Source: a candidate division FCPU426 bacterium (GTDB lineage: Bacteria; Oederibacteriota; Muellerivitia; Muellerivitales; Muellerivitaceae). Taken from it: DNA of 64,000 nucleotides. The stretch is taken from NCBI GenBank assembly GCA_963719085.1, contig CAVRAL010000004.1, forward strand, positions 150,504-214,503. Reading direction: 5' to 3'. The stretch's first letter is position 1, and each line of letters opens with the position of its first letter. The translations under genes and the position numbers were made by a program. The notes beneath the pieces are model-generated. The model saw only the letters and a program-made list of their open reading frames with translations. It had not been told where the DNA came from and searched no databases. Shown one piece after another: positions 4,017 to 59,258 of this stretch.

Positions 4017-4101
4017 ACCTATTTCCTTCATTGGTTTTTTCTCAGAAAATCCAGCCTGGTTTGATTTCAAATCAAATGTCTCTAAAACGCTTTTCTTCCC
4101 G

Positions 4102-4536: not shown

Positions 4537-4654
4537 GGTTGAACCCCTTATTGATGAAGGCCAAAGACAGGACGACTTGCCATTTATTCTATCAGCTTTT
4601 GCCAGCTTATTGAAAAGAGCTAGATCAATTGGCTCCCCACATTAGACAAGTTTT

Positions 4655-4697
4655 ATTTTAAACAAAAATGCCGAAACGCCCAAGAGGCGCTTCGGCA
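4655..4697 (-). terminator. Rho-independent terminator downstream of the Ser/Thr-rich protein gene
   Basis: Hairpin gccgaaacgcc-caagag-gcgcttcggc, followed on the minus strand by ATTTTTGTTT. Confidence 0.5.
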
Positions 4698-4725
4698 AAG
4701 AAGCGGGAGAGAGAAAAACCAATTG

Positions 4726-11764: not shown

Positions 11765-13996
11765 ATGGCGGCCCAATCCAGGGTGTTCTTTTTGCTTTTA
11801 TTTCTAAGCCTCTCGCGGACCACCGCTTGGGCGGCTCCCCTTTCCGACGCGGCGCTGGACAATAAAGTGAACGCCCTCTTGGGCAAAATGACCCTGGCGG
11901 AAAAAATCGGCCAGATGGTTCAATATAACAACTGGGCCACCGCCTCGGTGGAGGCCCAGACGGACATCGCCCAGGGCAAGGTCGGCTCCTTCCTCAATAC
12001 GGTGGGCGCCAAACAAATCAATGAGCTTCAAAAAATCGCCGTGGAACAATCCCGCCTCCATATCCCCATGCTTTTTGGATTGGACGTGATCCACGGCTAC
12101 AAAACCATCTTCCCCATTCCCTTGGCCGAGGATTGCGCTTGGAATCCGGACCTGCTGGAACAATGCGAGGGCGTGGCCGCCCATGAATCCGCCGCCGCCG
12201 GCATCCGCTGGACCTTCGCGCCCATGGTGGATGTGACCCGGGAGCCGCGCTGGGGCCGCATCGCCGAAGGCTCGGGCGAGGATCCTTTTTTGGGCTCGAT
12301 CTTGGCCGCCGCCCGGGTGAAAGGCTTCCAAGGCGCCTCGCTTTCGGATCCGGGCTCGATCGCCGCCTGCGCCAAACATTACGTGGGTTACGGCGCGGTT
12401 GAGGCGGGGCGGGAATATAACACCACCGACATGTCCGAAGTGACCTTGCGGGACATCCACCTGCCGCCCTTTAAAGCCGCCGCCGACGCCGGTGCGCGCA
12501 CCTTTATGAGCGCCTTCAACGACCTTAACGGCGTTCCCGCTTCCGGAAATGTTTACACCCTGCGGGGCATCCTCAAAGGCGAGTGGGGGTTTAAAGGTTT
12601 CGTGGTTTCGGATTGGGATTCGGTGGCCGAATTGGTCACCCACGGCTACGCGGCGGATGACAAAGACGCGGCCCGGAAAGGCCTCTTGGCCGGCGTGGAT
12701 ATGGACATGCACAGCAAGGTGTACAGCCAATATTTGGCCCAACTGGTGCAGGAGAAAAAAATTCCGGTCGCCCTCATTAACGACGCCGCCCGGCGTATTT
12801 TAAAGGTCAAGTTTGAGCTGGGTCTTTTCGAACACCCCTACGCGGATGAAAGCGCGGAAGACGCCGCCATGATGACCGACGCGAACCGGGCCCTGGCCCT
12901 TCAGGAAGCCCAACAGTCCATTGTGCTTCTTAAAAACGATAAAAATCTTTTGCCGCTGGGCAAAGACTTAAAAACCATCGCCGTCATCGGTACCCTGGCC
13001 GATTCCAAGATCGACCCCTTGGGTCCCTGGCATTGCCAAGGTGAAAAAGTTCAAGACCAAGTCATCACCGTATTAAAAGGAATCCAGGACAAACTAGGCG
13101 CTTCCACTCGTGTGCTTTACGCCCCCGGCGTGGACGTGACCCAAGCGGACGCGCCCCAATCGTTGATTGACCAGGCGGTCAACACGGCTAAACAAGCCCA
13201 AGTGGCGATTGTGGTGGCAGGCGAAAGGCAATCCATGAGCGGCGAGGCCGAAAGCCGCACCTCGCTGGATTTGCCGGGCCGGCAGGAAGAAATGATTGAG
13301 CAAATCGAAAAGACCGGCGTCCCTGTGGTGCTCGTCTTGATGAACGGCCGTCCCTTGACGATTCCCTGGGAAGCCGATCACTTGCCCGCGATCGTGGAAA
13401 GCTGGTTTTTAGGCGTGGAACAAGGCGCGGCCGTGGCCGATGTGCTCTTCGGCGACGCGGTGCCTTGCGGCAAATTGGCCGTCACCTTCCCCCGTAATTT
13501 GGGCCAGGTCCCGATTTATTACGCCCACCGCAACACGGGCCGTCCTTATAAAGGAGATCCCAACAACAAGTGGTGCTCCAAATACATCGACTCGCCCAAC
13601 ACACCCCAGTTTCCTTTCGGGTATGGCTTAAGCTACACGACTTTTGACTATTCCAATTTGGTTTTAAGCTCAGGAACTTTGGGATTGAAGGGGACGCTCA
13701 AAATAACCGCCGATGTCAAAAACAGCGGCGCCCAAGCCGGCGTTGAGATTGTCCAGCTTTATATCCAGGACAAAACAGCCAGCATCACCCAGCCGGTCAA
13801 ACGATTGGTGGACTTTAAACGGGTGGAACTAAAACCAGGTGAGACACAAACGATCGAGTTTGACCTGCCGGCCTCAAAACTGGGATTCTCGAATGAAAAA
13901 GGAAAAACCGTGGTGGAACCGGGCTCGTTCGGCCTGTGGGTGGCCCGGGATTCGGCGGATGAGACCCTGGCCGGGAGCTTTACGTTAGTCCCCTAG
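11765..13996 (+). CDS. bglX: Periplasmic beta-glucosidase, glycoside hydrolase family 3
   Basis: Signal peptide. GH3 N-terminal domain (GFVVSDWDSV with nucleophile Asp), C-terminal domain and fibronectin-like domain. ATG with a GGAGG ribosome-binding site. Confidence 0.9.
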   Translation: MAAQSRVFFLLLFLSLSRTTAWAAPLSDAALDNKVNALLGKMTLAEKIGQMVQYNNWATASVEAQTDIAQGKVGSFLNTVGAKQINELQKIAVEQSRLHIPMLFGLDVIHGYKTIFPIPLAEDCAWNPDLLEQCEGVAAHESAAAGIRWTFAPMVDVTREPRWGRIAEGSGEDPFLGSILAAARVKGFQGASLSDPGSIAACAKHYVGYGAVEAGREYNTTDMSEVTLRDIHLPPFKAAADAGARTFMSAFNDLNGVPASGNVYTLRGILKGEWGFKGFVVSDWDSVAELVTHGYAADDKDAARKGLLAGVDMDMHSKVYSQYLAQLVQEKKIPVALINDAARRILKVKFELGLFEHPYADESAEDAAMMTDANRALALQEAQQSIVLLKNDKNLLPLGKDLKTIAVIGTLADSKIDPLGPWHCQGEKVQDQVITVLKGIQDKLGASTRVLYAPGVDVTQADAPQSLIDQAVNTAKQAQVAIVVAGERQSMSGEAESRTSLDLPGRQEEMIEQIEKTGVPVVLVLMNGRPLTIPWEADHLPAIVESWFLGVEQGAAVADVLFGDAVPCGKLAVTFPRNLGQVPIYYAHRNTGRPYKGDPNNKWCSKYIDSPNTPQFPFGYGLSYTTFDYSNLVLSSGTLGLKGTLKITADVKNSGAQAGVEIVQLYIQDKTASITQPVKRLVDFKRVELKPGETQTIEFDLPASKLGFSNEKGKTVVEPGSFGLWVARDSADETLAGSFTLVP

Positions 13997-14023
13997 GAGG
14001 CCGATGCTTGGCAACCGATTGGG

Positions 14024-14090
14024 TTAAAATCCCCTCTCCCCCGCTTGTCCCCTTGCGGGATCGAGGGAGAGCGCCAGGGCGAGGGGTAAA
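14024..14090. terminator. GC-rich dyad-symmetry region between convergent genes (putative terminator)
   Basis: cccctc...gagggg outer stem with inner ccgc/gcgg pairing, flanked by A-rich runs. Sits between the bglX stop (13996) and the GT-C gene stop (14100). Weak T-run, so low confidence. Confidence 0.25.
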
Positions 14091-14099
14091 AATTAAGAG

Positions 14100-16859
14100 T
14101 TACTGAAAAACTTCCGCCGGAACGACGGCAAAATTATTGTCACCCGGCAGGGACCAAAGCAAGGAAATGGACGAATAACCATCCGAGCGGTAATAAATTT
14201 TAATCGAGTGGCGGCCCGGCAATAAATCCACGATTCCCGATCCATAACGTTCCAAGGGGATCACATCCTGGCCATCCACCACCAGCCGGCCCTGGTCGCT
14301 GGGGTCCATCGCCAGCATAAAATGGTAAAATCCGCTTTTCGTGATCCGAAGCGATCCTTCCCAGGAAGCCGATCCGCCCCGGACGGAAAAATCATTTCCA
14401 TTGGTGTAGTTCAACAAGGGTTCCTGTTGTCCCAAAATGGGTTTGCCGCTCCAATCATCGCTGTCAAAATATTTGGCCAATAAGCCTAAGGGCACTTGCA
14501 CGGGCGTGGCGTTATCCGCGTCCAATGGAACATGGATGCCGTTATCCCCGACCAATTCCAGCCTGAGCGGCGCCGCTCCCGCCGTCCGGTTCCAGCTCAC
14601 CTGGATCGGGACATAACCCGCCGTCAAAGCCGCCGCGCCCAGCACCGGGACGCCGTTGGCCTTCCAAGAAACCGTTCCATCCGAATGATTGACCAACCGG
14701 TACTTTCCCTGCACCCCGACAAAGAGGCTTCCGGTGAAAGAGGCGCGCACGGGTCCATTGGGAATCCCTTGGGGGAATTGATTCAACAGCGTCACCGCTC
14801 CCCCGTTGAACTGGGCCTTAAGTCCCTTGCACCGCGCCCACTCGGAAGCGGGCACCTCGAAGAAATAAAGGAAGGGTCGGCCGGTCGGGTCGAGCTGTTC
14901 CGTGACCTTGCCTTGCGGGTAAAGATTTTGGAGCGCTTCTAAAATTCCGGCCCGGCCCGCGTCAAAGCCGTAAAAAAGCCCGTGGTCGCCGGGAACGCTC
15001 AGCGGCATCAAGGAGTCCGGAAGTTTAAACGGCTTCAATTCCGGGAGGCATTGGTAGGCGTAAAAATTAACCGAGTAATGATTGTAATAACGCGGGGAGA
15101 TGAAGGACGCGTAGCCCGGCCCCTTTTCGCCGATGGCTTTGCCGAGCGAGGATTCGGTAATGGAATACTCGGACCAACAAGCGTAATTGGTCCCCTGCAT
15201 ATTGAAGTAAACGTTGAAATTTTCCACCGTCATAAAGATCAGGGCCAGTCCCAAAAGCGCCAAGAAAACCCTTTCGCCTATTTTCCCCGCCCAGGCCTGG
15301 GCCTGGCCCCAAAGCGCCGACAGGGGCGCCGCGATCAAAAACGCGATGAAAGGCGTCATGCCCAGCATGCGGTTGGCGTGGGCCGCGTCGATGGAAAAAA
15401 TACAAGGAATACTCATGACGAAAAAACCCACCACGGCGTAAAAATACCCGCGCTCTCGCGCGCGCGCCAAGGCGTAAACCAAGCCTAAGATGAGCAGCAC
15501 GCCCGAAACGTCATCCAACATGCGGTAGTCCTGCAGGTTGTGGCGGGGATTGGGGTCGCCCTGGCGGTTGAACATCAAGGCCGTTTTATCCAGCACGTTG
15601 AAGAAAGGCTGCAAGCTATGCGCGGCCTTCAATTGGGGCACGATGGAAAGTTCGGACTCCCGGGTGCCCATATTGTGGGTGGCCACCATGTCGTACCAAA
15701 CCGGGCCCGTCAGGGCCAAGGCTAACCCTAGGAAAAGCAGGATGTTCTTGGCGTTTTTCAACAGCGCCTTGCGGTTGGTGGCGATCTCATAAATCGCGTA
15801 CGGAATTAGAAGAACCGGGAAAACCTTGAAGGCCTGATAGGTATAGAAGCCCGCCGTGAAAAAAAGCGAGGACACCACAAAAGACCAACGTTTGTTTTGC
15901 TTCAAGCCGTAGATCAGAAAGGCCAGCGTCCCAAACATGTAAAAAGGCACCTGGACCGTGGGAAAGGCGTTGCGGCTGAAATTAATGTTCCAGCGCATGA
16001 CCGCCAAAACGAAAAGCGAAAGCAGGGCCATCCGGGGCCCGGCCAACTGCCGGAAGGTCCAATAGATCAGGGGGAAGGTGGCCATGACCATCAGCACGAA
16101 AAAAAGCTTCAGGGTGAAATCGGAAGCGCCCACCACGGCAAAAAAAGCCGCGATCTGGTAAAGCACCAGGGCGTAATTATGGTAGATATCCTCAACATAA
16201 AAGGGATGCCAGCCCTCATGCAAAATCCGAAGCGCGGAATAACCCTCGTAGCCTTGGTCGATAAAAAGCCCCGCGGGGAAATGGTTCAATTGGTAAACCC
16301 GCATAAACAGGGCGACCGCCATGACAACCCAGAAAATTATTTTTTCTTTGGTCAATACCCAGCCGGACTCGGCGGGTCCCGGCTTAAACCAAGGCCCTAA
16401 AGCGCCGAGCCAAAGCAAAACCGCCCCCAGATAATAAAAAGCGCCGATAACCAGCGTGACCGGCCTCGCGGCCTGGATCCAATAGATCTGTCCCATCACG
16501 GCCAGCATCAAAGCCGCCAAAAGGGCCAAGAGCCGGTAAAAATCCATGGCGCTAAAGAGCGGTTTGGAAACGTCCCACTTGAAGGCGGATTTGGATCCTT
16601 TGGTTTCGGAGGTTTTCGATCTTACGGCCCCGGCCTTTGTTGGCTTGAAATTAATCCGGGGGTTAAACAAATCAAAGAACCCCGCCAGCCAGATGAGGGC
16701 GACGAAAAGGGAAATCACCATGCCCAACACCGCGCTTCCCTTCAAACAAAGAACTTGCGCCGCCAGAAACAGGACCGCTAGCAAAGCAGTCCCCAGGGGG
16801 CTGGTAATGGGATTGGCGCTCTTTGAACTATTTTTGTTCCGCGGTTTGGAAGAAGCCAT
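14100..16859 (-). CDS. Membrane GT-C glycosyltransferase (PMT/ArnT-like, GT39/GT83 type) fused to a C-terminal PA14 carbohydrate-binding domain
   Basis: About 12 predicted TM helices with aromatic-rich loops in the N-terminal 550 aa. The C-terminal 130 aa (WSGKPILGQQ...GSASWEGSLRITKSGFYHFMLAMDPSDQGRLVVDG...YYRSDGYSSISLLW) matches the PA14/GLEYA fold. ATG and an AGGAG ribosome-binding site confirmed. Confidence 0.7.
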   Translation of the reverse strand: MASSKPRNKNSSKSANPITSPLGTALLAVLFLAAQVLCLKGSAVLGMVISLFVALIWLAGFFDLFNPRINFKPTKAGAVRSKTSETKGSKSAFKWDVSKPLFSAMDFYRLLALLAALMLAVMGQIYWIQAARPVTLVIGAFYYLGAVLLWLGALGPWFKPGPAESGWVLTKEKIIFWVVMAVALFMRVYQLNHFPAGLFIDQGYEGYSALRILHEGWHPFYVEDIYHNYALVLYQIAAFFAVVGASDFTLKLFFVLMVMATFPLIYWTFRQLAGPRMALLSLFVLAVMRWNINFSRNAFPTVQVPFYMFGTLAFLIYGLKQNKRWSFVVSSLFFTAGFYTYQAFKVFPVLLIPYAIYEIATNRKALLKNAKNILLFLGLALALTGPVWYDMVATHNMGTRESELSIVPQLKAAHSLQPFFNVLDKTALMFNRQGDPNPRHNLQDYRMLDDVSGVLLILGLVYALARARERGYFYAVVGFFVMSIPCIFSIDAAHANRMLGMTPFIAFLIAAPLSALWGQAQAWAGKIGERVFLALLGLALIFMTVENFNVYFNMQGTNYACWSEYSITESSLGKAIGEKGPGYASFISPRYYNHYSVNFYAYQCLPELKPFKLPDSLMPLSVPGDHGLFYGFDAGRAGILEALQNLYPQGKVTEQLDPTGRPFLYFFEVPASEWARCKGLKAQFNGGAVTLLNQFPQGIPNGPVRASFTGSLFVGVQGKYRLVNHSDGTVSWKANGVPVLGAAALTAGYVPIQVSWNRTAGAAPLRLELVGDNGIHVPLDADNATPVQVPLGLLAKYFDSDDWSGKPILGQQEPLLNYTNGNDFSVRGGSASWEGSLRITKSGFYHFMLAMDPSDQGRLVVDGQDVIPLERYGSGIVDLLPGRHSIKIYYRSDGYSSISLLWSLPGDNNFAVVPAEVFQ

Positions 16860-16900
16860 TTCATCTCCTTAAGAAGGGGTTTAAAACACTCAACCTCGGA

Positions 16901-17623
16901 TTAACGCGCGGACTCAAACCCTTTGAGCCGCAAAGCCAAGGCCCTTCCCAGGTATTTTAAAAGCGTGGAAAGGCCCAGTTTGGATTCGCCTTGGGTGCGG
17001 TCGATGAACTCGATGGGGGATTCCTGAATCCGGAGCTTCGCTTGGGTGCATCGGAATAAAATCTCAGAAACCGTGAAGGGGCCCCGGGCGTTGAGGGTTT
17101 TCACTTTAATCCGGCGCAGCGCTTCCTTGGAAAAGGCGCGGAACCCCGAAGTGGGGTCTTTGGGCTTCAGCCCTAAAACCAGCTTGAGATAGTAGCGCGC
17201 GAAATTACTGGTCATCTGCCGGTGGAAGGGGCGGTCCATGTCTTTTCCGCCGGGCATATAGCGGCTTCCAATGACCACATCGGCTTTCCCGGATAAAATC
17301 GGGGCGACTAAGTTTTTAATGAATTTCGGCTGATGGGAAAGATCGGCGTCCATCTCCACCACCACGTCCGCGCCCATGGACAAGGCCTTTACGAACCCAT
17401 CCCGGCCCGCCCAACCCCGGCCCTTGATCTCGCGGCCGCGAAGAAGCAGATGAAGTTTTTTGTCTTTTTTGGCCAGCTTGCGCACTTCCACAAAAGTCTC
17501 ATCGGGCGAGGAATCGTCCACCACCAGCACCTGGACTTGGGGGGCGTCCTTGCGGAAAAGCTTCATCAAGGGGGCGATATTTTTTCTTTCGTTATAGGTG
17601 GGCACCATGGCGATGACTTTCAT
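16901..17623 (-). CDS. Polyprenyl-phosphate mannose/glucose synthase (Dpm1/ArnC-like GT2)
   Basis: VPTYNE, DDSSPD and MDADLSH (DXD) motifs of dolichyl/undecaprenyl-phosphate sugar synthases. ATG confirmed. Overlaps the upstream GT9 gene by 4 nt (ATGA). Confidence 0.8.
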   Translation of the reverse strand: MKVIAMVPTYNERKNIAPLMKLFRKDAPQVQVLVVDDSSPDETFVEVRKLAKKDKKLHLLLRGREIKGRGWAGRDGFVKALSMGADVVVEMDADLSHQPKFIKNLVAPILSGKADVVIGSRYMPGGKDMDRPFHRQMTSNFARYYLKLVLGLKPKDPTSGFRAFSKEALRRIKVKTLNARGPFTVSEILFRCTQAKLRIQESPIEFIDRTQGESKLGLSTLLKYLGRALALRLKGFESAR

Positions 17624-18744
17624 GCCAGTTTCAATTGTCTCTCAACGGCGGCCAGCATGTCTTTTTCTTCCAGGTTGTCCATACAGGAAATTTTTTGGGT
17701 GCACTGGTTTTGGTAATAGCATTGGCAGGGCTTGCGGGGCAGCACTTTTTCGCCCCGGCCATAGAGGTCGATTTCCACGTCGGACGTGGGGCCGAAATAG
17801 GCCACCGTTCTTTTTTCCAGAGCGATGGCCACGTGCAGGGCCAGGGTATCCCCGGTCACCATCACGTCCGCCAAACCCACCAGCGAGGCGAATTGGCGCA
17901 GGGTGTTTTCCGTCCCCGTGGGCAGGACCAAACCCTTGAGTTCTTTCGAGAGCGCGGGCATCAGTTCCCGCTCTTCCGGCCCGCCGTAAAGCAGAATGCC
18001 CACCTTGGGATATTTCTTTTTCAGGGCTTTGGCCAGCCAAGCGAAACCGTCCAGGCGCCATCGCTTCATGGGCCAGCGGCCGCCGGAGCCGATGTTGAAA
18101 CCCACGATTTTTTTGAATTTGGACAACTTATTCTTTTGGGCGAATTCCTTGGCCCAAGCCAACTCTTTATTGGTCAAAGCCAATTGCGGCTCTTCGCCCT
18201 GGTAGGTGAGCCCGGCGAGTTTGAAAAGATGGGATTGATAGGTCTTTTGGTTGGCCCGCTTCACCGTATCGAACAAGCCCATCTCGAACCATTCCTCGCC
18301 CGTGGGTTCCAAAGGCACCACCGACCCTTCGGGAGACAATCCAAAACCCTTTTTCACCGAGCTGTTGGCGACGGCCAAAATGGCGGCGGCTTTGCGGCTC
18401 ATGTCAAAATTATAGGCGCGCTTGAAAGTCACCGAAGCCAAGGTGACCGGCAGAATCGCGTCCACGCCCAGCAGCACGTCGATATAGGGGTTTTTTTCTA
18501 AAAGCGGTTTCGAGGAATTTTCGGTGACCCACCAAATGGAAAGCCCCGGGTTGTTTTGTTTATAAGCCGGCAAGATGGAGGTGGAGCGCAAAACGTCGCC
18601 CGCCGCGTCCAGTTTGACGATCAGAAGCCGCTCCTGGACCTGGTCGTAACGGGGACAACCGTCGCACACCACTCCTTCCTGCTTATGGGGCAGGCAGGGT
18701 TTTTCACCCGTGAAGTGGCGGCAATCTTGATGATAAATGAGCAT
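17620..18744 (-). CDS. Glycosyltransferase family 9 (heptosyltransferase-like) with a Cys-rich N-terminal extension
   Basis: GFNIGSGGRWPMKRW, GGPEERE and VTGDTLALHVAIAL motifs of GT9. The N-terminus has C-x-C...CDGC (possible zinc ribbon). ATG confirmed. Confidence 0.7.
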   Translation of the reverse strand: MLIYHQDCRHFTGEKPCLPHKQEGVVCDGCPRYDQVQERLLIVKLDAAGDVLRSTSILPAYKQNNPGLSIWWVTENSSKPLLEKNPYIDVLLGVDAILPVTLASVTFKRAYNFDMSRKAAAILAVANSSVKKGFGLSPEGSVVPLEPTGEEWFEMGLFDTVKRANQKTYQSHLFKLAGLTYQGEEPQLALTNKELAWAKEFAQKNKLSKFKKIVGFNIGSGGRWPMKRWRLDGFAWLAKALKKKYPKVGILLYGGPEERELMPALSKELKGLVLPTGTENTLRQFASLVGLADVMVTGDTLALHVAIALEKRTVAYFGPTSDVEIDLYGRGEKVLPRKPCQCYYQNQCTQKISCMDNLEEKDMLAAVERQLKLA

Positions 18745-18894
18745 TCAGGTCCCAAAAAGAACGGCCGCGTTGAGAGAAAACGGCCTTTTTGAAAAATCAA
18801 ACCGCGCCGGACAAGATATCACTTTCATTCCCCACCGACCAGCGGGATTTGAGAATGGGCGCGGCGCATGGGTTTTTAAGCGGTGAAACGAATC

Positions 18895-19878
18895 TTAATG
18901 ACCCGCCGACACAGGCACCGGATGATAAAAGTCCACTTCCCCGCCCTTGAGGCAGGCTAAGTCGCCGCTGGGCAAAACAGTCAAAGCCCGGACGCCGTCG
19001 ATGTCTTGTCCCTTTTGGGCCGCGTTGGCCAGCGTCCCGATATATTTTCCCATCGGGTTGAAAATCTTCACGAGCCCCGTGTCCCGGAGCGCGGCGTAAA
19101 TATTTCCTTGGGCGTCCAAGGCCACATCGTTCACCGGCAGGCTCTCGTCATCCTGAACGCATTTTCCCTGGGCGTCCAAAACCTTTAAGCCATGCTCGTT
19201 GGCCACATAAATGCGCCCTTGCGCGTCGACCGCGATCGCGACGGGGTTCGATAATTTTTCTTTGCCGCCCGCCCCGTCCCAAGCGCCCAAAATTTCACCC
19301 GAAGGGGAAATCTTCACAACCCGGTGGGTGCCCGTATCGGCCACGATGTAATTGCCGTTCACCCAGCCAAGGCCGCGGGGCCCGAACATGCCCTTGTTGC
19401 CCATGTCCAAAATTCCGGTTGGTTTGCCGGTGGCCACGTTGAAATTGCGGATCATGGCGTTCCAAGTGTCTATCACGTAAAGGCTGTTGGCGCCGTCGGT
19501 GGCCATGCAGGAAATTTCCTTGAAGTCGGGTTTGCCCGCCGCCTTGGTGTCAATCATGCGCTGGTAATGGCCTTGAAGATCGAAGATCAGGATTCTTTCA
19601 CGGGGTTGGTCGGTCAAAGCGATCCAATTGGGACCGGACTTGATGTCCCAAGGAGCGAAGATTCCGCAGGCTTGATCATCACCCTTAAAAGAGCCGGTCA
19701 GCTGGGCCGGATAGTCCCGGGGAATATTAATTTGGCCCTTCATGAAAAACACCGCTTCGCCGCAAAACAAGACGGCGATGAAGAGCACGATCATGATTCC
19801 GATGGCTTTTCTTTTTTGCGCCGTGGACTTGGAAACCGGCTTGGCTTTCTTTTGGGTTTTCTTGGCGGCTTTAGGCAA
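18895..19878 (-). CDS. Membrane-anchored NHL-repeat (six-bladed beta-propeller) protein
   Basis: Lys-rich N-terminal tail, one TM helix, then repeated YVAD/YVAN/GxxxxP NHL blades. The track start is TTG at 19878 (GAGGAG 8 nt upstream). An alternative ATG lies at 19794. Confidence 0.65.
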   Translation of the reverse strand: MPKAAKKTQKKAKPVSKSTAQKRKAIGIMIVLFIAVLFCGEAVFFMKGQINIPRDYPAQLTGSFKGDDQACGIFAPWDIKSGPNWIALTDQPRERILIFDLQGHYQRMIDTKAAGKPDFKEISCMATDGANSLYVIDTWNAMIRNFNVATGKPTGILDMGNKGMFGPRGLGWVNGNYIVADTGTHRVVKISPSGEILGAWDGAGGKEKLSNPVAIAVDAQGRIYVANEHGLKVLDAQGKCVQDDESLPVNDVALDAQGNIYAALRDTGLVKIFNPMGKYIGTLANAAQKGQDIDGVRALTVLPSGDLACLKGGEVDFYHPVPVSAGH

Positions 19879-20025
19879 ATGTGGCTCCTCAACGGGTATT
19901 TATAAAACGTGGGGGTTCAAGATAACATCCGCTGTTCTTTCTGCCAATGAGGAATGAGGGGTTCCGCGGGATCCAAGAAACGCCATTGGTTTAAAAAGGC
20001 TTAAAAACTAGTCTTTTTAAAAGCC

Positions 20026-20250
20026 CTATTGGCCAAGCGGGACGATGGATAAGGCGCCCGAAGGGCACTTCCCGACTTGATCTTTTATTTCCTCAGTCGT
20101 GGCGGCCATCGGCTCAATCCAAGGCCGCTTGGCCGGGTTGAAGACTTGGGGCAAGCCTTGGGCACAGTACCCGCAATGGATGCAAAGCCCCGATTGCCAA
20201 AGCACGTTGATCTCGCCGTTGGAGTAATGTTTTTTCACGTGGCGATCCAT
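20026..20250 (-). CDS. Small divergent 4Fe-4S-type iron-sulfur protein
   Basis: 74 aa with a CIHCGYCAQ...C cysteine cluster. ATG confirmed. Confidence 0.5.
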   Translation of the reverse strand: MDRHVKKHYSNGEINVLWQSGLCIHCGYCAQGLPQVFNPAKRPWIEPMAATTEEIKDQVGKCPSGALSIVPLGQ

Positions 20251-20367
20251 TGAATACCTCCCAGGGGCCAGAAATGAATTCTTAATAGCTCGTGAAATTC
20301 AGGCCGTCGCGTCTGTCGCGGGCATTCAATTCAAATCACAAACCGCCAGAACCAGCGGGCCGCGATT

Positions 20368-21381
20368 TTACGGTTCGAGCTGCCCGCTGCTGGTCGATAT
20401 GACGTAGCCACCCGAACTAGTCGTAGGCCCCTTAACGACATTATCGTTCTCCTTGATCTCAGTGACGATCGACCCACTTTCATTTTTATTTTGAGCTGAA
20501 ATATAAAAAAACATGGAACTTAATTGATCAGATGGGATGTAATAAACCTGGGACCAGGGCAAAGATACCCCGCTTTCCTGGGTGGTGTTCCCCTTGTCAT
20601 CCCGATAGGTCAAGTCCGCGCTATCACAACCGTCATATCCCTCAACCACATATTCACACTTAACATCTGTCGTTTGATTATCGATTGCCGTTTTTTTAAC
20701 CGCGCTCGCGTTCCCCATCATCAATTTATTTTTCGAGGCCTCGTCCCCGGCCATTTTTTTATCGAGGGTATCCATGAAGTTAGCGGCGATCCACCGGAGG
20801 GTCCATCTCTGCTCCTGGGTGAGGTCGAATTGGTCCGTGCAAACGGCGACGTGGACATTATCGGCTTTGGCTAGATCCGCCAGTTGTTGCCCGCTCAAAG
20901 TAACCGTGATGAATTCATTGAGGGATCCATCCGAATTTTTCTTACTTTGGTATTCCGAGGGAAGGTCTCCCAAATCTTGGCTCCCGATGGTCACCGCCAC
21001 ATCCTTACAATCAGCGTAGCGGCCCGCGCCATCCGTGCTGTCCCAAAAAATCAGGAATCCGTGAGGAGGATTTTTAACAGTCGGGTGGTCGGGAACCAAC
21101 GCTAAAATCCGCAAGTTTTCCTTGAAAGTATTGTCGCCCACATTATCAGGGGAATATTGAAGGAGCATCTCCGAGTCCACTTGGTCCCGTTTGATGTTGG
21201 TCAGTTTATTTCCAGCATCATGCTGGACCACGAACAAGTTCGATTTCACGTGATCCGCCACAAAGTCCTCATAGCTTGCGAACTTACCCGTTGAACCGCC
21301 AGTTTGGGCGAAAAGGGAGTGGGAGAAGGAAAATAACAGGGCAACGAAAAAGACCGAAGATCTAGTCATAAATATTTTCAT
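20368..21381 (-). CDS. Secreted hypothetical protein
   Basis: Signal peptide MKIFMTRSSVFFVALLFSFSHSLFA. No recognisable domain. ATG confirmed. Confidence 0.45.
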   Translation of the reverse strand: MKIFMTRSSVFFVALLFSFSHSLFAQTGGSTGKFASYEDFVADHVKSNLFVVQHDAGNKLTNIKRDQVDSEMLLQYSPDNVGDNTFKENLRILALVPDHPTVKNPPHGFLIFWDSTDGAGRYADCKDVAVTIGSQDLGDLPSEYQSKKNSDGSLNEFITVTLSGQQLADLAKADNVHVAVCTDQFDLTQEQRWTLRWIAANFMDTLDKKMAGDEASKNKLMMGNASAVKKTAIDNQTTDVKCEYVVEGYDGCDSADLTYRDDKGNTTQESGVSLPWSQVYYIPSDQLSSMFFYISAQNKNESGSIVTEIKENDNVVKGPTTSSGGYVISTSSGQLEP

Positions 21382-21436
21382 GTTTTACCTTTCCAATACT
21401 AGCGAGCGATCAAATACGCTCCCTATTGTATCCAGC

Positions 21437-23308
21437 CTATCCTCGCTTTTTAATCTTTTGTTTCTTCCCCATCACATGCCAAAGGCCATAAGCTAAGAAC
21501 CCCGCGCAGGTGGCGAAGGCTTCGCCGGTGGCGGCTTCTCCGCTGTTCTCATCCACCGACTCGCAAGCCAGGCCGTTGTCCATGGAGGCGCGCTTAATAA
21601 AGGAAAGCGCCCGGTCTTTGTGCCCGGACAAGAGGCTGTTCACGGCGGCCAAGACCCAAGGGTGCGAGGCGTGGCGGCAGCCCACTTCCTCGAAGGGTTT
21701 GCCCGCGTAGGAATAAAGATATTCCGGGGAATGGACCCAATCCCGGGTCTTTTTCCAGGGCGGATAAGTGGCTTTGCAAAAACCCCAGTGGGGCAAAAGC
21801 AAAAGACTGCCGGGCGGCTCATCATATAAGAGGAAACTTTTGTTCAAATCCACCGACCAGGCGAACTGGCGGCCCTTGGGGCCCTTCACCAGGCATTTGC
21901 GCAAGATAGCCTTGCGGGTTTCTTCCGCCAGCGCCCGCAGGCGCCAAAAGGCTTTTTTGTCTTTTTGGTGTTTTCGGATTTCAGAAAGATCAAGCAGTGC
22001 CCGCCAAACCAATACGTTGTCATAGGTCACATAGCGCTGGGGCCAGGGATCATCGGAAGGCAAAAGCCAGGTCTCGTATAGGGCAACCTTAGGATTGCGT
22101 TTGGTCGCCAGGACCTTCTCAAACCGGACCAGGGATTCTTGAAACTCAGGCTTATCTAATAGGGAGAAATCCTTGGTGGCATCAATATATTGCTTTAAGG
22201 CGATCACCGGCGCGCAAAGCTCATCCAGCTCAAAACCCGGTTCCAAAACCGCGCCCGAAAGATAGCGGCTGTGGGTGCCAAAATTATTTCCCTGCCGGCG
22301 AAAGATGGCCGTCAGGGTTTTTTGGGCCCATTCGGGGTCCTGCGCCAAAAGCGCCGGAAAGGACCAAAGCAAGGCATCCCGGTCCCAATAGGCTCCGCTC
22401 ACGTAATAACGGGGGCTTCGGGAAGTCATCGAAACCACTTCTTCGGTATCCATGGCGAGACCGGTCGAATAAAAGCGGTTGAAGAAGGCGTTTAAATTAA
22501 GGATCGGATCCAGTTCTTTATCTTTGGTTTCCAGCCGCCTTGCCTGGAGCCATTTGCGGTTTTGATCCCGCAAAACCGCGCCGCCCGCCCTTTGCATTTC
22601 CCGGGCGGAGGCGAAAGCGCCGATTTCATCCGGGCCCAAGCCAAAATAAAAGAAGGTTTCCCAGAACTGGTTGGATTTGATGTCCCGCGATTGAAGCCAC
22701 TGCAGGGTCAGGATGTCGTCCTCGGGCACCGGCGTTTCCCGGCCCACGGGTGAGAGGGCTTTTCGGCCCAAACGGTAAAAAAAGCGGCTGGACTTATCCG
22801 GTGGATAAAGCGCCAAGGCGGCCAGGGGCTGGGGCGCGCGCCATTCAAAAACCGGAGTGCCTTCCCAGCTTTTGGAAACCAAAACCCTCTGGCCCTTGAG
22901 CGGCTTGGTCAGGTTCACGCTGTGAAGCATCTCGCCCCAGGCCGTCTCGGCCCCCACCACGCAGTAAACGGATTTTTCCGAGAGATTTTTGACCTTTATC
23001 GAAAGCACAAAGCCCCGCTCGCCCACGGGGCAAAAATAGCTTCCTTCCATCTCCACTTGCTCGTTTTTAAAATGAAAGTGCGGCATCCAATCCGCGTCCC
23101 GGTCCCAGACCAGTTGACCCAAGAAAAGAACCTCGGAATCATCCAGGAACAGGCGGGGCGTGACGAGCGGTTGGGCCTTCCCTGAAAAGGAAAGCAACCC
23201 GTTGAGCCCCATGTGGGCCACGTTCAAATTCTCAAGGGTGGCGTCTTCTTCGTTCAGGGTCGGCAGGGAAACATATTCATTTCCCGTCGGCTGGTATTTT
23301 TTTTTCAT
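21437..23308 (-). CDS. Putative glycoside hydrolase of the (alpha/alpha)6 six-hairpin superfamily (GH125/GH63/GH15-like)
   Basis: 623 aa, cytoplasmic. The C-terminal 400 aa have the aromatic/acidic pattern of six-hairpin glycosidases (YYVSGAYWDRDALLWSFPALL, TYDNVLVWRAL, CAGFLAYGLW). Family assignment is by recall only. Confidence 0.45.
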   Translation of the reverse strand: MKKKYQPTGNEYVSLPTLNEEDATLENLNVAHMGLNGLLSFSGKAQPLVTPRLFLDDSEVLFLGQLVWDRDADWMPHFHFKNEQVEMEGSYFCPVGERGFVLSIKVKNLSEKSVYCVVGAETAWGEMLHSVNLTKPLKGQRVLVSKSWEGTPVFEWRAPQPLAALALYPPDKSSRFFYRLGRKALSPVGRETPVPEDDILTLQWLQSRDIKSNQFWETFFYFGLGPDEIGAFASAREMQRAGGAVLRDQNRKWLQARRLETKDKELDPILNLNAFFNRFYSTGLAMDTEEVVSMTSRSPRYYVSGAYWDRDALLWSFPALLAQDPEWAQKTLTAIFRRQGNNFGTHSRYLSGAVLEPGFELDELCAPVIALKQYIDATKDFSLLDKPEFQESLVRFEKVLATKRNPKVALYETWLLPSDDPWPQRYVTYDNVLVWRALLDLSEIRKHQKDKKAFWRLRALAEETRKAILRKCLVKGPKGRQFAWSVDLNKSFLLYDEPPGSLLLLPHWGFCKATYPPWKKTRDWVHSPEYLYSYAGKPFEEVGCRHASHPWVLAAVNSLLSGHKDRALSFIKRASMDNGLACESVDENSGEAATGEAFATCAGFLAYGLWHVMGKKQKIKKRG

Positions 23309-23457
23309 TCCCTATTCCAGAAAATAAGTTGAAGTTTCAAAAGCCCGCCCCACAACGCTCAAAAAGCCAAAGAATCTTTTGCAATGATCAATGCCGATGA
23401 ATGCGGATTACAGGATCAAAAATTTCATGTTTTTTAAATCAGCCTTTATCGGCTTTG

Positions 23458-25506
23458 CTAAGGATGATAACCGCCGCTTTTGACCAAATAATCGAGATTC
23501 GACCGGGCCTGGGGATAGTTGGGGTCCAAGGCCAGTACCCGGCTAAAATAACCGCCCGCCCTTTGGGTTTGACCCAGATAAAAGGCCGCGATCGCCGCGT
23601 TGAAATAGGCTTCTTTGTAACGGGGATTCAGGTCCCAGGCCTTCTGGTAATAATCCAAGGCTTCCTGGTTCCGGCCCAAATGCACCAGCGCGTTGCCCAC
23701 ATTGTAAGCGTACTTGGGTTCGAGCGGGTACCATTCCTGGGCCCAGGCGTAATCCCGAAAGGCGCGGCCATAGGCCTCCTGGGCCTTTAAATAATAAGCG
23801 GCGGCCTTTTTATCTTTGGCCTGGGCCCTGAAATCATCGCCCTGATTTTCCGCGGTTAAGCCCAGCGCGTTTCGCTTGAAGGCGTAATTACTAAAGAAAA
23901 ACAGGGCCGTCCTTTCATCCACCGGATTTTCGGGCGGCCGGTTGCGAAGCCGAAGGCGATTCCAGGCTTCCATTTGTTGGGCGTCGGTTAAAAGCGACAC
24001 CGGCCCTTCGCGGTTCACCCGGTTGACGATTCCCTCGGGCGCCAAAGCCGCTCCCGGCAGGATGCGCGGGTCCAAGTCCTCGAAGCTTAAGTAAAAAGGA
24101 TGATCGGTATTTTTTTCCGCCATCCAACTCATCAAGGTGGGGATCGATTCAAGCCCCAATCTTTCATCCGTCAGGGGAACGTGTAAATCCGGGTGGGATT
24201 TGGCCAAGTCGCGCCTAATCCAATCCATCGGCAATCCGTCCACCCCGACGAAAGCCAAGTCCGGACGCTTTTTTTCGACCCATTGAAAATACCAGGCGGG
24301 AAAAACCAAGCCATCGCCCTTCGCGTAATAAAGCGAGCCCTTGGGAAGTTCCTGAAAAGCGTTAAGTCCGTAATCATAGGCGTAGGTGTAGTGGGTTTGA
24401 CGGTCCCGTAGATCCCGGAAAATTCCGAGACCTAACAAAACCAGGGCCAGGGCCAAGAAAATCAAAAGTTTCCCCTGGAGTCTTTGGAAAACGGCTTTCA
24501 GCGCGAAAGCCGTGAAGACAAGAATCAGGGTCTGGCCGGCTAAAGCGTATTCCCCCAAAAGATAAAAGCGGGCCGCAGGCAAATTAAGATAGAGCGACAG
24601 AACGACCCATAAGGATAACCATCCGGCCAATAATCCCCGGACCATCTTTGGCTCATTCTTCCAAGCGATAAAGGCGCCCGCGAGTGCCGCCAAAAAAAGT
24701 CCCGGCCATTCCATGAAATAGCGTTTCAATAAATCAAAGGCCTGCGCGGCCCAATTCAACGCGCCTCCATTGTGCTCGGCGCCGCCATATTCCGCCCGGG
24801 TCAAGTGAAACCAAAAAGAACTGAGGGAACCCGGCTCTCCCCAATTTAAAAGCGGTGAATGGACCGCGCGGAGCGGAAGAAATAAATAGAGGGACAGGCT
24901 TAAAACACCCGCCACGAATCCCAGCCAAAGTTTGGCCCTGGTTCCCCCGCCTTGGGCCTGGTCCCGCGCGAAGAGGAAAATCCCCGGCGCCAAAACCAAA
25001 AGGGTCATCCAATGGTTGGCCAAGGAAAGCCCGAAAAGAAACCCCGCCATCTCCCACTTCACTTCCACCAAGGCCAAAAGAATCCCCAGAATGAGCGCGG
25101 CGGTAAGTTGGTAAAGACCGGTCTTAGCGCTCAAAGCGCCCGGATAGGCGCTGGCCCCGGTCACCCAAAAAAGCGCCAGGACAAAGGCCCAGCTTTCGGG
25201 AAGCTTCACCCACTTTTGAAATAGTTGGAAAAGAAGCACGCAGTTGAGGGCGGCCAACAGGGCTGAAAGCAGGTTGACCCGAAAGCCGAATCCGCCCAGG
25301 GGCAAAAAAGAAAGGAAATGGCCGAGCAGGGTGAAAAAGGGATAACCGGGCGGATGGGCGACGCCTAAAAGGACCGCCGCCGTGATGGTTTCGGCGCTGT
25401 CATCGGCGTAAAAGCCGGGATTGACGCCCGTCAAAAGAAAAAGAAAGGCGGCCAAAAATAAAAGCGGGTTCCGGAAAGTTTCCCAACAGCCGGAAAAAGA
25501 GGGCAA
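23458..25506 (-). CDS. DUF2723-family GT-C membrane glycosyltransferase with C-terminal TPR repeats (TMEM260/TMTC-like)
   Basis: Multi-TM N-terminal region (AETITAAVLLGVAHPPGYPFFTLLG...) followed by TPR motifs (YYLKAQEAYGRAF, ALDYYQKAWDLNPRYKEAYFNAAIA, LALDPNYPQARSNL). Only a TTG start (25506) is available, so the start is low-confidence. Confidence 0.65.
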   Translation of the reverse strand: MPSFSGCWETFRNPLLFLAAFLFLLTGVNPGFYADDSAETITAAVLLGVAHPPGYPFFTLLGHFLSFLPLGGFGFRVNLLSALLAALNCVLLFQLFQKWVKLPESWAFVLALFWVTGASAYPGALSAKTGLYQLTAALILGILLALVEVKWEMAGFLFGLSLANHWMTLLVLAPGIFLFARDQAQGGGTRAKLWLGFVAGVLSLSLYLFLPLRAVHSPLLNWGEPGSLSSFWFHLTRAEYGGAEHNGGALNWAAQAFDLLKRYFMEWPGLFLAALAGAFIAWKNEPKMVRGLLAGWLSLWVVLSLYLNLPAARFYLLGEYALAGQTLILVFTAFALKAVFQRLQGKLLIFLALALVLLGLGIFRDLRDRQTHYTYAYDYGLNAFQELPKGSLYYAKGDGLVFPAWYFQWVEKKRPDLAFVGVDGLPMDWIRRDLAKSHPDLHVPLTDERLGLESIPTLMSWMAEKNTDHPFYLSFEDLDPRILPGAALAPEGIVNRVNREGPVSLLTDAQQMEAWNRLRLRNRPPENPVDERTALFFFSNYAFKRNALGLTAENQGDDFRAQAKDKKAAAYYLKAQEAYGRAFRDYAWAQEWYPLEPKYAYNVGNALVHLGRNQEALDYYQKAWDLNPRYKEAYFNAAIAAFYLGQTQRAGGYFSRVLALDPNYPQARSNLDYLVKSGGYHP

Positions 25507-25519
25507 AGGACCTCTTGTC

Positions 25520-26056
25520 TTATTCGGCCAGCAAATAAAGCCGGTTGTCCTCGACCCGGTAGATCATGGGCGCGATCAATATCTTGGGATAGCGGGCCCG
25601 CAGGCGGTTGGCCTCGCTGAGCGTGAAGGTTTCCTCGTCGCCGATCTCGGAGTTCGCGACGTTCTGCTCAAAATGCACGGCGGCGGCTTCCCGGGTCCAC
25701 CCGGCCTCAATCAAACCTTCGATAAACTTTTCGCGCTTCGTCGGCAGTTTCACCATGCCGCACTGGGTGTGACCGATGAGCGCCATGGCCCGCACCCCGC
25801 CCACGGCTACCGCGAAGGAAATCTTAAACTCGCTGGTGCGCATATTGGCGCCGGCGGCCCGGATGATGAAGGCGAACAGGTCGGGGGCGTTCAAATGCTT
25901 GCGGTTGTCCATGCACATGCCGATGAGAAGCTCGGCTTTGGGATAAACCTCAAAAGGCCGGCCCAGGTTGTGGTATTCCAAAAAGCGTCCCACCGGCGTG
26001 TCCCGGTATTGGGGAAAAATATCGGCGGCTTGGTTGACGGGCACGAGTCGGCTCAT
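25520..26056 (-). CDS. Beta-class carbonic anhydrase
   Basis: Zinc ligands in CMDNR and HTQCG motifs. ATG confirmed. Only 14 nt separate it from the DUF2723 gene downstream. Confidence 0.8.
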   Translation of the reverse strand: MSRLVPVNQAADIFPQYRDTPVGRFLEYHNLGRPFEVYPKAELLIGMCMDNRKHLNAPDLFAFIIRAAGANMRTSEFKISFAVAVGGVRAMALIGHTQCGMVKLPTKREKFIEGLIEAGWTREAAAVHFEQNVANSEIGDEETFTLSEANRLRARYPKILIAPMIYRVEDNRLYLLAE

Positions 26057-41023: not shown

Positions 41024-41030
41024 ACGAAAC

Positions 41031-41360: not shown

Positions 41361-41394
41361 AACACGCTCCTTGAAATTTTTAAGGCGGCTCCAC

Positions 41395-41423
41395 TTGACG
41401 TGAACCCGGCCTGAACCAATATA
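41395..41423 (+). promoter_or_regulatory. Sigma-70-like promoter candidate (TTGACG-17 nt-AATATA) for the YceI gene, inside the divergent intergenic region shared with the bufferin-like operon
   Basis: Hexamers with a 17-nt spacer. About 140 nt of leader lies before the ATG at 41568. Unverified. Confidence 0.3.
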
Positions 41424-59230: not shown

Positions 59231-59258
59231 GGCTTTGATCTTTTCCCTTTTGTCCCGC

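Follow-up and report, generated by a model that had tools for sequence, protein, structure and literature searches.

A putative lipid-linked-sugar-dependent glycosylation locus with a PA14-bearing GT-C enzyme in candidate phylum FCPU426

The locus under study (positions 14100–25506) lies in a 64 kb stretch of DNA, referred to here as the window. The source is a bacterium of candidate phylum FCPU426, uncultured and living in soil or peat. It is a diderm, since lptA-like and lptB genes are found in the window, as well as genes for outer-membrane β-barrel proteins. All the genes that an earlier note had described from this DNA were present, on the minus strand and with the same coordinates, and its domain calls hold. 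Its count of ten co-directional genes needs adjustment: eight lie within 14100–25506, all on the minus strand, and ten are reached only if a carbonic anhydrase gene and a permease gene are added. Co-direction is in any case uninformative here, because a GH3 gene (11765–13996) is the only plus-strand ORF among the Pfam-supported ORFs of at least 200 aa in the whole 64 kb.

The gene at 14100..16859 (−) encodes a 919-aa GT-C glycosyltransferase with Pfam matches to PMT_2 (39.5 bits; cut-off 26.1) and PA14 (27.5 bits; cut-off 24). The PMT_2 match, together with the PF11028 match of the second GT-C enzyme (70.5 bits; cut-off 24.2), gave profile support to both GT-C assignments made previously. The protein consists of a four-TM N-terminal extension, a core with the multi-TM GT-C_A fold, a linker and, in place of the single C-terminal PA14 domain originally proposed, two PA14-like domains in tandem (residues ≈676–790 and ≈791–919), for which both the PA14 β-sandwich fold and the above-cut-off Pfam match are present (AF2 model, pLDDT 85). 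Residue D201 is invariant in an alignment of 24 sequences and is located after the fifth TM helix, in the first periplasmic loop, a placement read from the sequence and the model without residue-level superposition. The PA14 pair resembles the polysaccharide-binding pair of RsgI3 and sugar-binding PA14 domains, and the GT-C/PA14 family profile matched RsgI3 PA14 at 1e-24. The fusion had been thought unusual; however, 117 of the best 120 homologues carry it, with 497 clusters at E ≤ 1e-30, and it is the norm for a large GT-C family.

Identity as a GT39 protein O-mannosyltransferase (PMT/POMT or actinobacterial Pmt) was considered for this enzyme and rejected: PMT_2 and PA14 were its sole Pfam matches at E ≤ 0.01, PMT (PF02366) and MIR were absent, and the loop-1 motif is D-Q rather than D-E. 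In fold, ArnT, OST and ALG12 are equally near to it. The N-terminal four-TM extension matched neither GtrA nor, in any consistent way, another Pfam family at E ≤ 10, and a search of the locus only (14–26 kb of the window) found no gene for a flippase of the GtrA, SMR, MATE or DedA type. Carbohydrate-binding modules on GT-C enzymes hold glycan acceptors, as in the GT136 enzyme ORF12, Emb and AftD (PMC11127046). Because these other enzymes act on glycans, the acceptor of the 919-aa enzyme would, by analogy, most likely be an envelope glycan. A glycoprotein acceptor is possible, since PA14 is also found in glycoprotein-binding adhesins and toxins.

The adjoining gene (16901..17623, −) encodes a 240-aa GT2 of the DPM1 type, without a TM domain (Pfam GT2, 1.3e-23), and the VPTYNE, DDSSPD and DAD motifs reported earlier could be seen in its translation. 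Residues 1–228 matched the archaeal Dol-P-Man synthase PfDPMS (PDB 5MLZ) at 2e-29. In the alignment to 5MLZ, PfDPMS residues Y10, E12, D39, D89-A-D91, H94, R117, R131, S135, R202 and K208 are kept; with roles taken from the published structure (PMC5526996), these include residues that bind the donor and the metal, the lipid-phosphate site (R117/R131/S135) and the A-loop (R202/K208). Fold, DAD motif, lipid-phosphate site and the A-loop Arg and Lys are thus all present. Two positions are altered, Q93 to Ser and L69 to Arg. The best NCBIfam matches were AglJ, PgfS and PpgS, each below its cut-off. In view of these two substitutions, and with no NCBIfam equivalog cut-off reached, mannose as the sugar and GDP-mannose as its source are tentative assignments.

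The earlier note had asked whether this protein might be an ArnC orthologue in an arn (L-Ara4N) operon, and this identity was rejected. The ArnC match in the PDB was ≈1e-4, compared to 2e-29 for PfDPMS, and on the NCBIfam ArnC model, which has a cut-off of 529 bits, the protein scored 26.8 bits. A scan of 40 ORFs from the window turned up no homologue of arnA, arnB or arnD. We take the DADLSH motif and the absent TM domain to recall human DPM1. Human DPM1 and mycobacterial Ppm1 are dolichyl- or polyprenyl-phosphate mannose synthases. From its sequence, the GT2 is predicted to be a polyprenyl-phosphate hexose synthase, and the hexose is probably mannose.

The GT2 gene overlaps that of a 374-aa GT9 glycosyltransferase (17620..18744, −; Pfam 65.1 bits, cut-off 22). 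The ATGA coupling of the two genes was read directly from the sequence, and the Cys-rich N-terminus ascribed to the GT9 is accounted for by Cys8, Cys17, Cys27 and Cys30. These four residues are invariant across phyla, along with C340, C348 and C354, and the GD and GDT motifs are conserved. The AF2 model (pLDDT 88.7) has a GT-B fold and superimposes on 3TOV, a GT9 from Veillonella, with a TM score of 0.74–0.80. WaaF and WaaC were matched at E-values of 1e-14 to 1e-17. Against the NCBIfam models for LPS heptosyltransferases I, II and III, however, the GT9 scored 65.4, 57.6 and 54.9 bits, respectively, where the cut-offs are 185.3, 134.6 and 170.2. Being below all three equivalog cut-offs, it was rejected as an orthologue of WaaC, WaaF or WaaQ. 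No similarity to the protein heptosyltransferase TibC was detectable.

The second GT-C enzyme, of 682 aa (23458..25506, −), starts at a TTG codon with AAGAGG ahead of it and belongs to PF11028, formerly DUF2723. Its GT-C part covers residues ≈19–444, and TPR families match residues ≈560–680. The TMEM260 structure 9RQL matched at 1e-18 and bird TMEM260 at 8e-24 by BLASTP, with D36 at the motif Asp. The identity to TMEM260 is 28% over 450 residues, and the GVAHPPGYP motif is present. In human TMEM260, the catalytic residue is D52 (PMC10214176). A literature search found no characterised bacterial member of the family. The homology makes this protein a candidate protein O-mannosyltransferase, and it is a better candidate for protein O-mannosylation than the PA14 enzyme. 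Its gene is located 6.6 kb upstream here, and 11–33 kb from the GT9 gene in other genomes. Since the entire backbone (PTS, GH3, ABC and metK) is syntenic, this proximity may not reflect function.

The NHL β-propeller protein (18895..19878, −; Pfam NHL and SGL) matched the TRIM71, Thin and PknD propellers in the PDB and is predicted to be periplasmic because of its N-terminal membrane anchor. NHL homologues adjoin GT9 or GT-C/PA14 genes in most FCPU426 loci. The small Fer4_19 iron-sulfur protein (20026..20250, −; Pfam 1.1e-23) is retained only in L001 and L020, both closely related genomes, and probably lies outside the glycosylation system. Two secreted proteins had been put forward as Ser/Thr-rich candidate substrates. 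This description fits the protein at 4726–5403, which has a lipobox and 32% Ser+Thr, but not the 337-aa protein at 20368..21381 (−), which has a signal-peptide-like N-terminus, 17% Ser+Thr and no Pfam or NCBIfam match. The latter is already replaced in a relative of 75–90% identity; in L001, its slot is occupied by an unrelated 378-aa membrane protein. Conservation supports neither protein as a substrate, and nothing ties the one at 4726–5403 to the locus.

What had been called a cytoplasmic six-hairpin glycosidase is a GH125-like (α/α)6 protein without a signal peptide (21437..23308, −). Its Pfam GH125 match (71 bits, cut-off 23.4; 1.1e-19) is restricted to the C-terminal half, covering profile positions 205–408 of 414 and residues 408–604 of 623 only, and GH125 matches in the PDB ranged from 4e-10 (BT3781) to 1e-3; the protein is a distant relative of the exo-α-1,6-mannosidases. 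L001 and L039 also have this gene next to the one for the TMEM260-like enzyme. In L003 and L040, no GH125 gene accompanies the module. Beyond the locus, a weakly β-carbonic-anhydrase-like gene (25520..26056, −; Pfam Pro_CA, 30 bits) lies upstream of the TMEM260-like gene, at a distance of 13 nt rather than 14 nt. The two may be co-transcribed, as was suggested, given this gap, but their adjacency is not conserved in other genomes: the carbonic anhydrase gene lies inside a lineage-specific insertion, and in L039 and L040 a PTS enzyme I gene is directly ahead of the TMEM260-like gene.

The region had been viewed as one glycosylation island, but only the GT9–GT2 pair and the GT-C/PA14 paralogues recur across FCPU426, usually with an NHL gene. 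The pair is 65–90% identical, and at least 11 loci in FCPU426 have it adjacent to GT-C/PA14 paralogues. Each genome has a single GT9–GT2 pair and several GT-C/PA14 paralogues, an arrangement that fits one donor and many transferases. In two Deltaproteobacteria, a Cys-rich GT9 and a DPM1-like GT2 are followed by a PMT_2 GT-C, with PAP2, DedA and LPG_synthase_TM genes adjoining; no similarity between this GT-C and that of FCPU426 was detectable by tblastn. In further genomes, the GT9 is found in polysaccharide clusters with Wzx, ABC-2 or GT4 genes. Outside FCPU426, the neighbourhoods of the GT9 gene thus indicate a polysaccharide or membrane-lipid context.

In the reading that we favour, and to which we would give about an even chance, the locus serves lipid-linked-sugar-dependent extracytoplasmic glycosylation, with the PA14 GT-C acting on an envelope glycan and the TMEM260-like enzyme on proteins. 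At the cytoplasmic face, the soluble DPM1-type GT2 would load polyprenyl phosphate with a hexose, for which mannose donated by GDP-mannose is the likeliest candidate, and the glycolipid would be flipped by a flippase encoded outside the locus. The 919-aa GT-C, through D201 in its first periplasmic loop, would then move the sugar onto an acceptor held by the tandem PA14 lectin pair; this acceptor may be LPS core or O-chain, a capsule or exopolysaccharide, or a glycolipid. The Cys-rich GT9, with its gene coupled to that of the GT2, would work on the cytoplasmic side of the same glycoconjugate pathway, and the anchored NHL propeller would be a periplasmic partner or substrate specific to this lineage. 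The TMEM260-like GT-C–TPR protein would be a separate enzyme, probably drawing on the same lipid-linked mannose pool for O-mannosylation of periplasmic or outer-membrane proteins, while Fer4_19, the 337-aa secreted protein and the carbonic anhydrase would be bystanders. Folds, family memberships, conserved catalytic residues, topology and the conservation of gene neighbourhoods are observed; which sugar and acceptors are used, what the GT9 does and whether one donor pool is shared are inferred. The original wording, which left room for protein or glycan acceptors, stands. The machinery is of a known kind in a variant form, and ten genes devoted to protein mannosylation are not what the region contains.

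A dedicated protein O-mannosylation island, in which both GT-Cs would act on Ser/Thr with polyprenyl-P-mannose from the GT2, and in which the NHL protein or Ser/Thr-rich lipoproteins would be the substrates, seems unlikely to us. Such an island would account for the DPM1-like GT2, the homology of the TMEM260-like enzyme to a proven protein O-mannosyltransferase, the NHL proteins that repeatedly adjoin GT-C genes and the Ser/Thr-rich lipoprotein at 4726–5403. It would also suit the C-terminal Cys cluster of the GT9, which falls approximately where the iron finger of TibC sits, although the GT9 has no detectable relationship to TibC and its subfamily is found elsewhere in polysaccharide or lipid clusters. 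Furthermore, the 919-aa enzyme lacks PF02366 and MIR and is equally near to ArnT, OST and ALG12, and its carbohydrate-binding pair is better suited to a glycan acceptor. Of the proposed substrates, the 337-aa protein is lost even in the closest relative and the 4726–5403 protein is unlinked.

Decoration of lipid A or the inner core of LPS, as carried out by ArnT, FlmK and Rgt, we consider distinctly improbable. On this view, the GT9 would glycosylate the core, and the GT2 would make an undecaprenyl-P-sugar for the GT-C, which in the periplasm would attach the sugar to lipid A or Kdo and so alter the surface charge. LPS heptosyltransferases belong to the GT9 family, Lpt genes are present in the window, and the deltaproteobacterial GT9–GT2–PMT_2 triad, with its PAP2, DedA and LPG_synthase_TM neighbours, looks like lipid remodelling. 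There is also a precedent for mannose, which FlmF1 and FlmK are reported to add to lipid A in Francisella (PMC2233673). However, arnA, arnB and arnD are missing from the ORFs scanned, the GT2 is far from ArnC, and the GT9 falls under every WaaC, WaaF and WaaQ cut-off. Neither ArnT (≈550 aa) nor the deltaproteobacterial GT-Cs (546–558 aa) have lectin domains, and the latter lack detectable tblastn similarity to the FCPU426 enzyme, in which the PA14 pair, along with the several paralogues per genome, suggests polymeric and varied acceptors. By analogy with mycobacteria, where Ppm1 supplies MptA, MptB and PimE with polyprenyl-P-mannose, the GT-C/PA14 paralogues might instead be polymerising or branching mannosyltransferases that build an α-mannan or lipomannan-like glycolipid in the periplasm or on the surface, the GH125-like protein recycling α-1,6-mannosides. 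A soluble synthase of the Ppm1/DPM1 type, the many GT-C paralogues and a nearby GH125-like gene, which adjoins the TMEM260-like gene in three genomes, would fit, but the protein matches GH125 only in part and distantly, it is cytoplasmic, and L003 and L040 have no such gene close to the module. The neighbourhood also showed no genes for phosphatidylinositol-mannoside synthesis or for a primer glycosyltransferase. This reading, drawn wholly by analogy, seems very unlikely.

The favoured reading, extracytoplasmic glycosylation from a lipid-linked sugar, has its closest parallels in three-component systems (GtrA/GtrB/Gtr*; Citrobacter ORF15/ORF14/ORF12, GT136; O-antigen modification in Klebsiella and Shigella), which likewise combine a GT2-type synthase with a periplasm-facing GT-C. 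GT136 ORF12 also has a C-terminal carbohydrate-binding module on the GT-C, which in ORF12 binds the glycan acceptor (PMC11127046). Unlike these systems, the FCPU426 locus has no flippase gene within 14–26 kb, its synthase is of the TM-less DPM1 type rather than GtrB or ArnC and always comes coupled with a Cys-rich GT9, and the lectin module is a tandem PA14, with several GT-C paralogues per genome. The ArnT/ArnC, FlmK/FlmF and Rgt systems share the GT-C_A fold near ArnT, a GT2 lipid-sugar partner and a diderm host; here, in contrast, the window ORFs scanned include no arn operon, the resemblance of the GT2 to ArnC is remote and the GT-C is a lectin-bearing protein of 919 aa.

The GT2 corresponds to PfDPMS (5MLZ) over the entire catalytic domain, with the DAD motif, lipid-phosphate site and A-loop kept, and departs from it in having Arg for L69 and Ser for Q93. 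The GT9 has the GT-B fold and the GD and GDT motifs of WaaC, WaaF and 3TOV, and its C-terminal Cys cluster lies approximately at the place of the TibC iron finger (Cys339/342/358/370), but it differs from all of these in its extra N-terminal Cys4 motif and its constant DPM1-like GT2 partner. TMEM260 is the metazoan protein O-mannosyltransferase for IPT domains. The FCPU426 enzyme shares with it PF11028, GVAHPPGYP, an Asp at the D52 position and a C-terminal TPR region; it differs in being bacterial, and its donor would be an undecaprenyl-type lipid.

It is conceivable, if rather improbable, that the translationally coupled pair formed by the Cys-rich, metal-finger-like GT9 and the TM-less DPM1-type GT2, conserved from FCPU426 to Deltaproteobacteria, is the mark of an undescribed glycoconjugate pathway, in which, for example, the GT9 would extend or use a polyprenyl-monophosphate sugar before the GT-C acts. 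In FCPU426, this pathway would have diversified into many lectin-guided GT-C genes with tandem PA14 domains. The homologue of TMEM260 would in parallel be a genuine protein O-mannosyltransferase of bacteria, a prokaryotic counterpart or ancestor of the metazoan pathway.

The general picture of lipid-linked glycosylation is unchanged by these findings. A lectin-guided class of bacterial GT-Cs, together with a conserved GT9/DPM1 pair, would nevertheless extend the known routes of periplasmic glycosylation. TMEM260 is the gene of human SHDRA syndrome, and a tractable bacterial homologue could serve studies of substrate recognition. For FCPU426 itself, the locus gives a first view of how the cell surface is built in an uncultured, glycan-degrading phylum of soil and peat.

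Eight genes, all on the minus strand, lie within 14100-25506. Running from the low to the high coordinate, they encode a 919-aa GT-C glycosyltransferase with PMT_2 and PA14 domains (14100-16859), a 240-aa GT2 with VPTYNE, DDSSPD and DAD motifs (16901-17623), a 374-aa GT9 with a Cys-rich N-terminus (17620-18744), a membrane-anchored NHL propeller of 327 aa (18895-19878), a 74-aa Fer4_19 protein (20026-20250), a 337-aa signal-peptide protein belonging to no family (20368-21381), a 623-aa protein without a signal peptide, whose C-terminal half matches GH125 (21437-23308), and a 682-aa TMEM260-like enzyme (PF11028, formerly DUF2723) with TPR repeats (23458-25506). These domain assignments, made with Pfam and NCBIfam profiles, upheld those of the earlier note, which had counted ten co-directional genes and read them as a protein O-mannosylation-type island. 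The shared direction is nearly universal in the window: among Pfam-supported genes of the 64 kb, only a GH3 gene (11765-13996) is on the plus strand, and co-direction is therefore uninformative. The ATGA coupling described between GT2 and GT9 is present, the GT9 stop overlapping the GT2 start. With gaps of 41, −4, 150, 147, 117, 55, 149 and 13 nt between successive genes from 14100 to 26056, only GT9, GT2 and GT-C look like a tight unit. A promoter and terminator scan for operons gave 11 hits versus 7.1 ± 2.5 and 33 versus 28 ± 6.8 in shuffled sequence, respectively; since neither showed an excess, the scan was uninformative on operon limits. Overall, the observation was confirmed, while its interpretation was partly supported.

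The best solved relative of the GT2 is the Pyrococcus Dol-P-Man synthase (2e-29, residues 1-228). Read against the residue roles established for that enzyme (PMC5526996), the alignment showed equivalents of Y10, E12, D39, D89-A-D91 and H94, of the lipid-phosphate site residues R117, R131 and S135, and of R202 and K208 in the A-loop; the deviations were Q93 to Ser and L69 to Arg. The GT2 lacks a TM domain. By homology, it is predicted to be a DPM1-type polyprenyl-phosphate hexose synthase, and the sugar is likely to be mannose. The alternative named in the earlier note, an ArnC ortholog in an arn operon, was rejected: the match to ArnC was only ≈1e-4, the ArnC model score fell far under its cut-off, and arnA, arnB and arnD are absent among the 40 window ORFs scanned.

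In the 919-aa GT-C, D201, located in the first loop past the fifth helix, was invariant in an alignment of 24 family members. Clusters of Lys and Arg at residues 1-20, 62-103 and 154-172 place the D201 loop in the periplasm, and this, combined with a GT-C_A topology, predicts that the PA14 pair at residues ≈676-919 is also periplasmic. The PA14 fusion had been called unusual. However, 117 of the 120 best homologues carried the core together with one or more PA14-like domains, and a full HMMER scan with a cut-off of E ≤ 1e-30 yielded 497 representative clusters, many with alignments extending across the PA14 region. Judging from these sequences, the fusion is the norm for the family, whose members come nearly all from MAGs labelled candidate division FCPU426. 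Residues 1-165 form a conserved N-terminal extension of two helical hairpins with a basic disordered loop between them, found in most family members. We considered the possibility that this 4-TM extension was a fused GtrA-like flippase, and discarded it when four family members gave no Pfam signal at E ≤ 10. Fold ranking was no guide to the acceptor class, as OST, PMT, ArnT and ALG enzymes scored alike.

An AF2 model of the GT9 (pLDDT 88.7) matched Veillonella GT9 3TOV (TM 0.74-0.80), WaaF and WaaC; the sequence scored far under the NCBIfam equivalog cut-offs for WaaC, WaaF and WaaQ. Residues C8, C17, C27, C30, C340, C348 and C354 were kept in relatives from other phyla at 42-48% identity. These seven invariant cysteines, arranged as an N-terminal C-x8-C-x9-C-x2-C and a C-terminal cluster, are conserved across phyla in the subfamily (the window and loci L041-L046, outside the phylum). 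TibC, a protein heptosyltransferase, carries its iron finger at Cys339/342/358/370 (PMC4358343), but its likeness to the GT9 cysteine cluster is positional only: there was no sequence match, the 50 best Foldseek matches did not include TibC, and a TibC-type assignment was rejected. Foldseek also matched the model to a subunit of the plant chloroplast NDH-PSI supercomplex (9GRX chain 1, 7F9O chain 6, 7WFF chain a; TM ≈0.6), which appears to represent GT9-like folds in a non-glycosylation setting.

Window proteins were compared by tblastn with 43 related loci, and the gene tables were read. In at least 11 FCPU426 loci, the GT9-GT2 pair (65-90% identical) has at least one GT-C/PA14 gene (35-75% identical) no more than 10 kb away. 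Each genome has several GT-C/PA14 paralogues, some in tandem, and a single GT9-GT2 pair. The NHL protein usually adjoins GT9 or GT-C, and an NPCBM protein occupies its slot in one locus (L003). Fer4_19 was retained only in L020 and in the closest relative, L001. In L001, a MazE/PIN toxin-antitoxin pair is inserted at 4094-5066 with GH125 and Fer4_19 on either side, and after the GT-C gene, at 12782-22695, come genes for three YfhO-type GT-Cs, one more NHL protein, a sulfotransferase and an additional GT2. GH125 comes next after the TMEM260-like gene in the window and in L001 and L039; in three other contigs, the TMEM260-like gene lies ≈11, ≈18 and ≈33 kb from GT9. A backbone of PTS-Man, GH57 and EI through GH3, ABC, metK and ahcY is syntenic as a whole, so that proximity alone is weak evidence for shared function.

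The TMEM260-like enzyme matched the solved TMEM260 (9RQL) at 1e-18 over residues 19-444 and bird TMEM260 at 8e-24, sharing the motif D-x-x-E-x-ITAA...GVAHPPGYP. Its D36 occupies the position of D52 in human TMEM260, an Asp that is needed there (PMC10214176). With its TPR region, it is on homology the best candidate for a protein O-mannosyltransferase at the locus; a literature search found no characterised bacterial member of the TMEM260 family. A weakly matching beta-carbonic-anhydrase gene ends 13 nt (not 14, as previously given) ahead of its TTG start, with AAGAGG in the gap. The linkage proposed on this basis is not conserved, and a functional link was rejected, because the adjacency occurs in the window only. 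In the FCPU426 loci L039 and L040, EI lies immediately ahead of the TMEM260-like gene, and the window's 25.5-45.9 kb, carbonic anhydrase included, thus looks like a lineage-specific insertion. This ≈20-kb block (25507-45950), flanked by the genes for PTS enzyme I and the TMEM260-like enzyme, encodes the carbonic anhydrase, a permease, GH127, an MFS transporter, an FHA-cyclase, a Ser/Thr kinase with WD40 propellers, a RiPP pair, a DEAD helicase and a PGI/PMI-type SIS protein. The predicted RiPP-modification pair consists of an MbnB/TglH/ChrH-family enzyme (PF05114, 2e-107) beside a DUF2063 partner (39442-41023, minus strand); the precursor peptide or peptides are probably encoded just upstream, at 41023-42400.

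Outside FCPU426, the Cys-rich GT9 overlaps a DPM1-like GT2 that is 40-45% identical to that of the window; in four lineages this TM-less GT2 overlaps or follows the GT9. Two Deltaproteobacteria (L041 7001-14660 and L044 600-13251) share the order GT9, GT2, PMT_2 GT-C, LPG_synthase_TM, radical SAM and DegT aminotransferase, their GT-C being a PMT/PMT_2 protein of 546-558 aa without PA14. L044 has PAP2, DedA and PEMT genes upstream. Both give the appearance of an uncharacterised cluster for remodelling membrane lipids or lipid A. A link to hopanoid genes was dismissed, as squalene-hopene cyclase is near the triad in L041 and not in L044. In one further lineage the GT9-GT2 pair stands opposite a divergent GT2-PMT_2 pair, and elsewhere the GT9 is found within polysaccharide clusters with Wzx, ABC-2, GT4, B12-radical-SAM or YfhO genes. 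These contexts are glycan or membrane-lipid ones, not protein-glycosylation ones. The host itself is a diderm with LPS transport, as indicated by an lptA-like gene and by lptB, which cluster with rpoN and hprK, and by two outer-membrane beta-barrel genes (54024-63681 and 792-2104, both minus strand).

The locus would belong, by analogy, to lipid-linked sugar-dependent periplasmic glycosylation, like the three-component systems (PMC11127046), from which it differs in that no flippase gene was found within 14-26 kb; the N-terminal 4-TM extension of GT-C is not GtrA-like. In three-component systems, Emb and AftD, the carbohydrate-binding module of the GT-C binds the glycan acceptor (PMC11127046). 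These analogies, together with the genomic settings of GT9 and a diderm host, lead us to prefer an envelope glycan or glycolipid for the putative acceptor of the PA14 enzyme and proteins for those of the TMEM260-like enzyme; the DPM1-like synthase would feed both. That the whole locus serves protein O-mannosylation is unlikely. Of the two Ser/Thr-rich substrates proposed earlier, the lipoprotein at 4726-5403 (minus strand; lipobox SISC, no family assignment) is indeed rich, with 32% Ser+Thr, and had no homologue in the searchable related loci. The 337-aa protein has 17%, and its candidacy as a conserved substrate was rejected, since none of the related loci has it; its place in L001 is taken by an unrelated membrane protein of 378 aa.

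Decoration of the lipid A-core, which the deltaproteobacterial clusters and the WaaC and WaaF folds bring to mind and the GT9 equivalog scores do not, is somewhat less probable still. Synthesis of a mannan or lipomannan is the most doubtful of the three. Three features stand out as the most interesting: the conserved pairing of the Cys-rich GT9 with a DPM1-like GT2, the family of GT-C enzymes bearing lectin domains, and a bacterial homologue of TMEM260.
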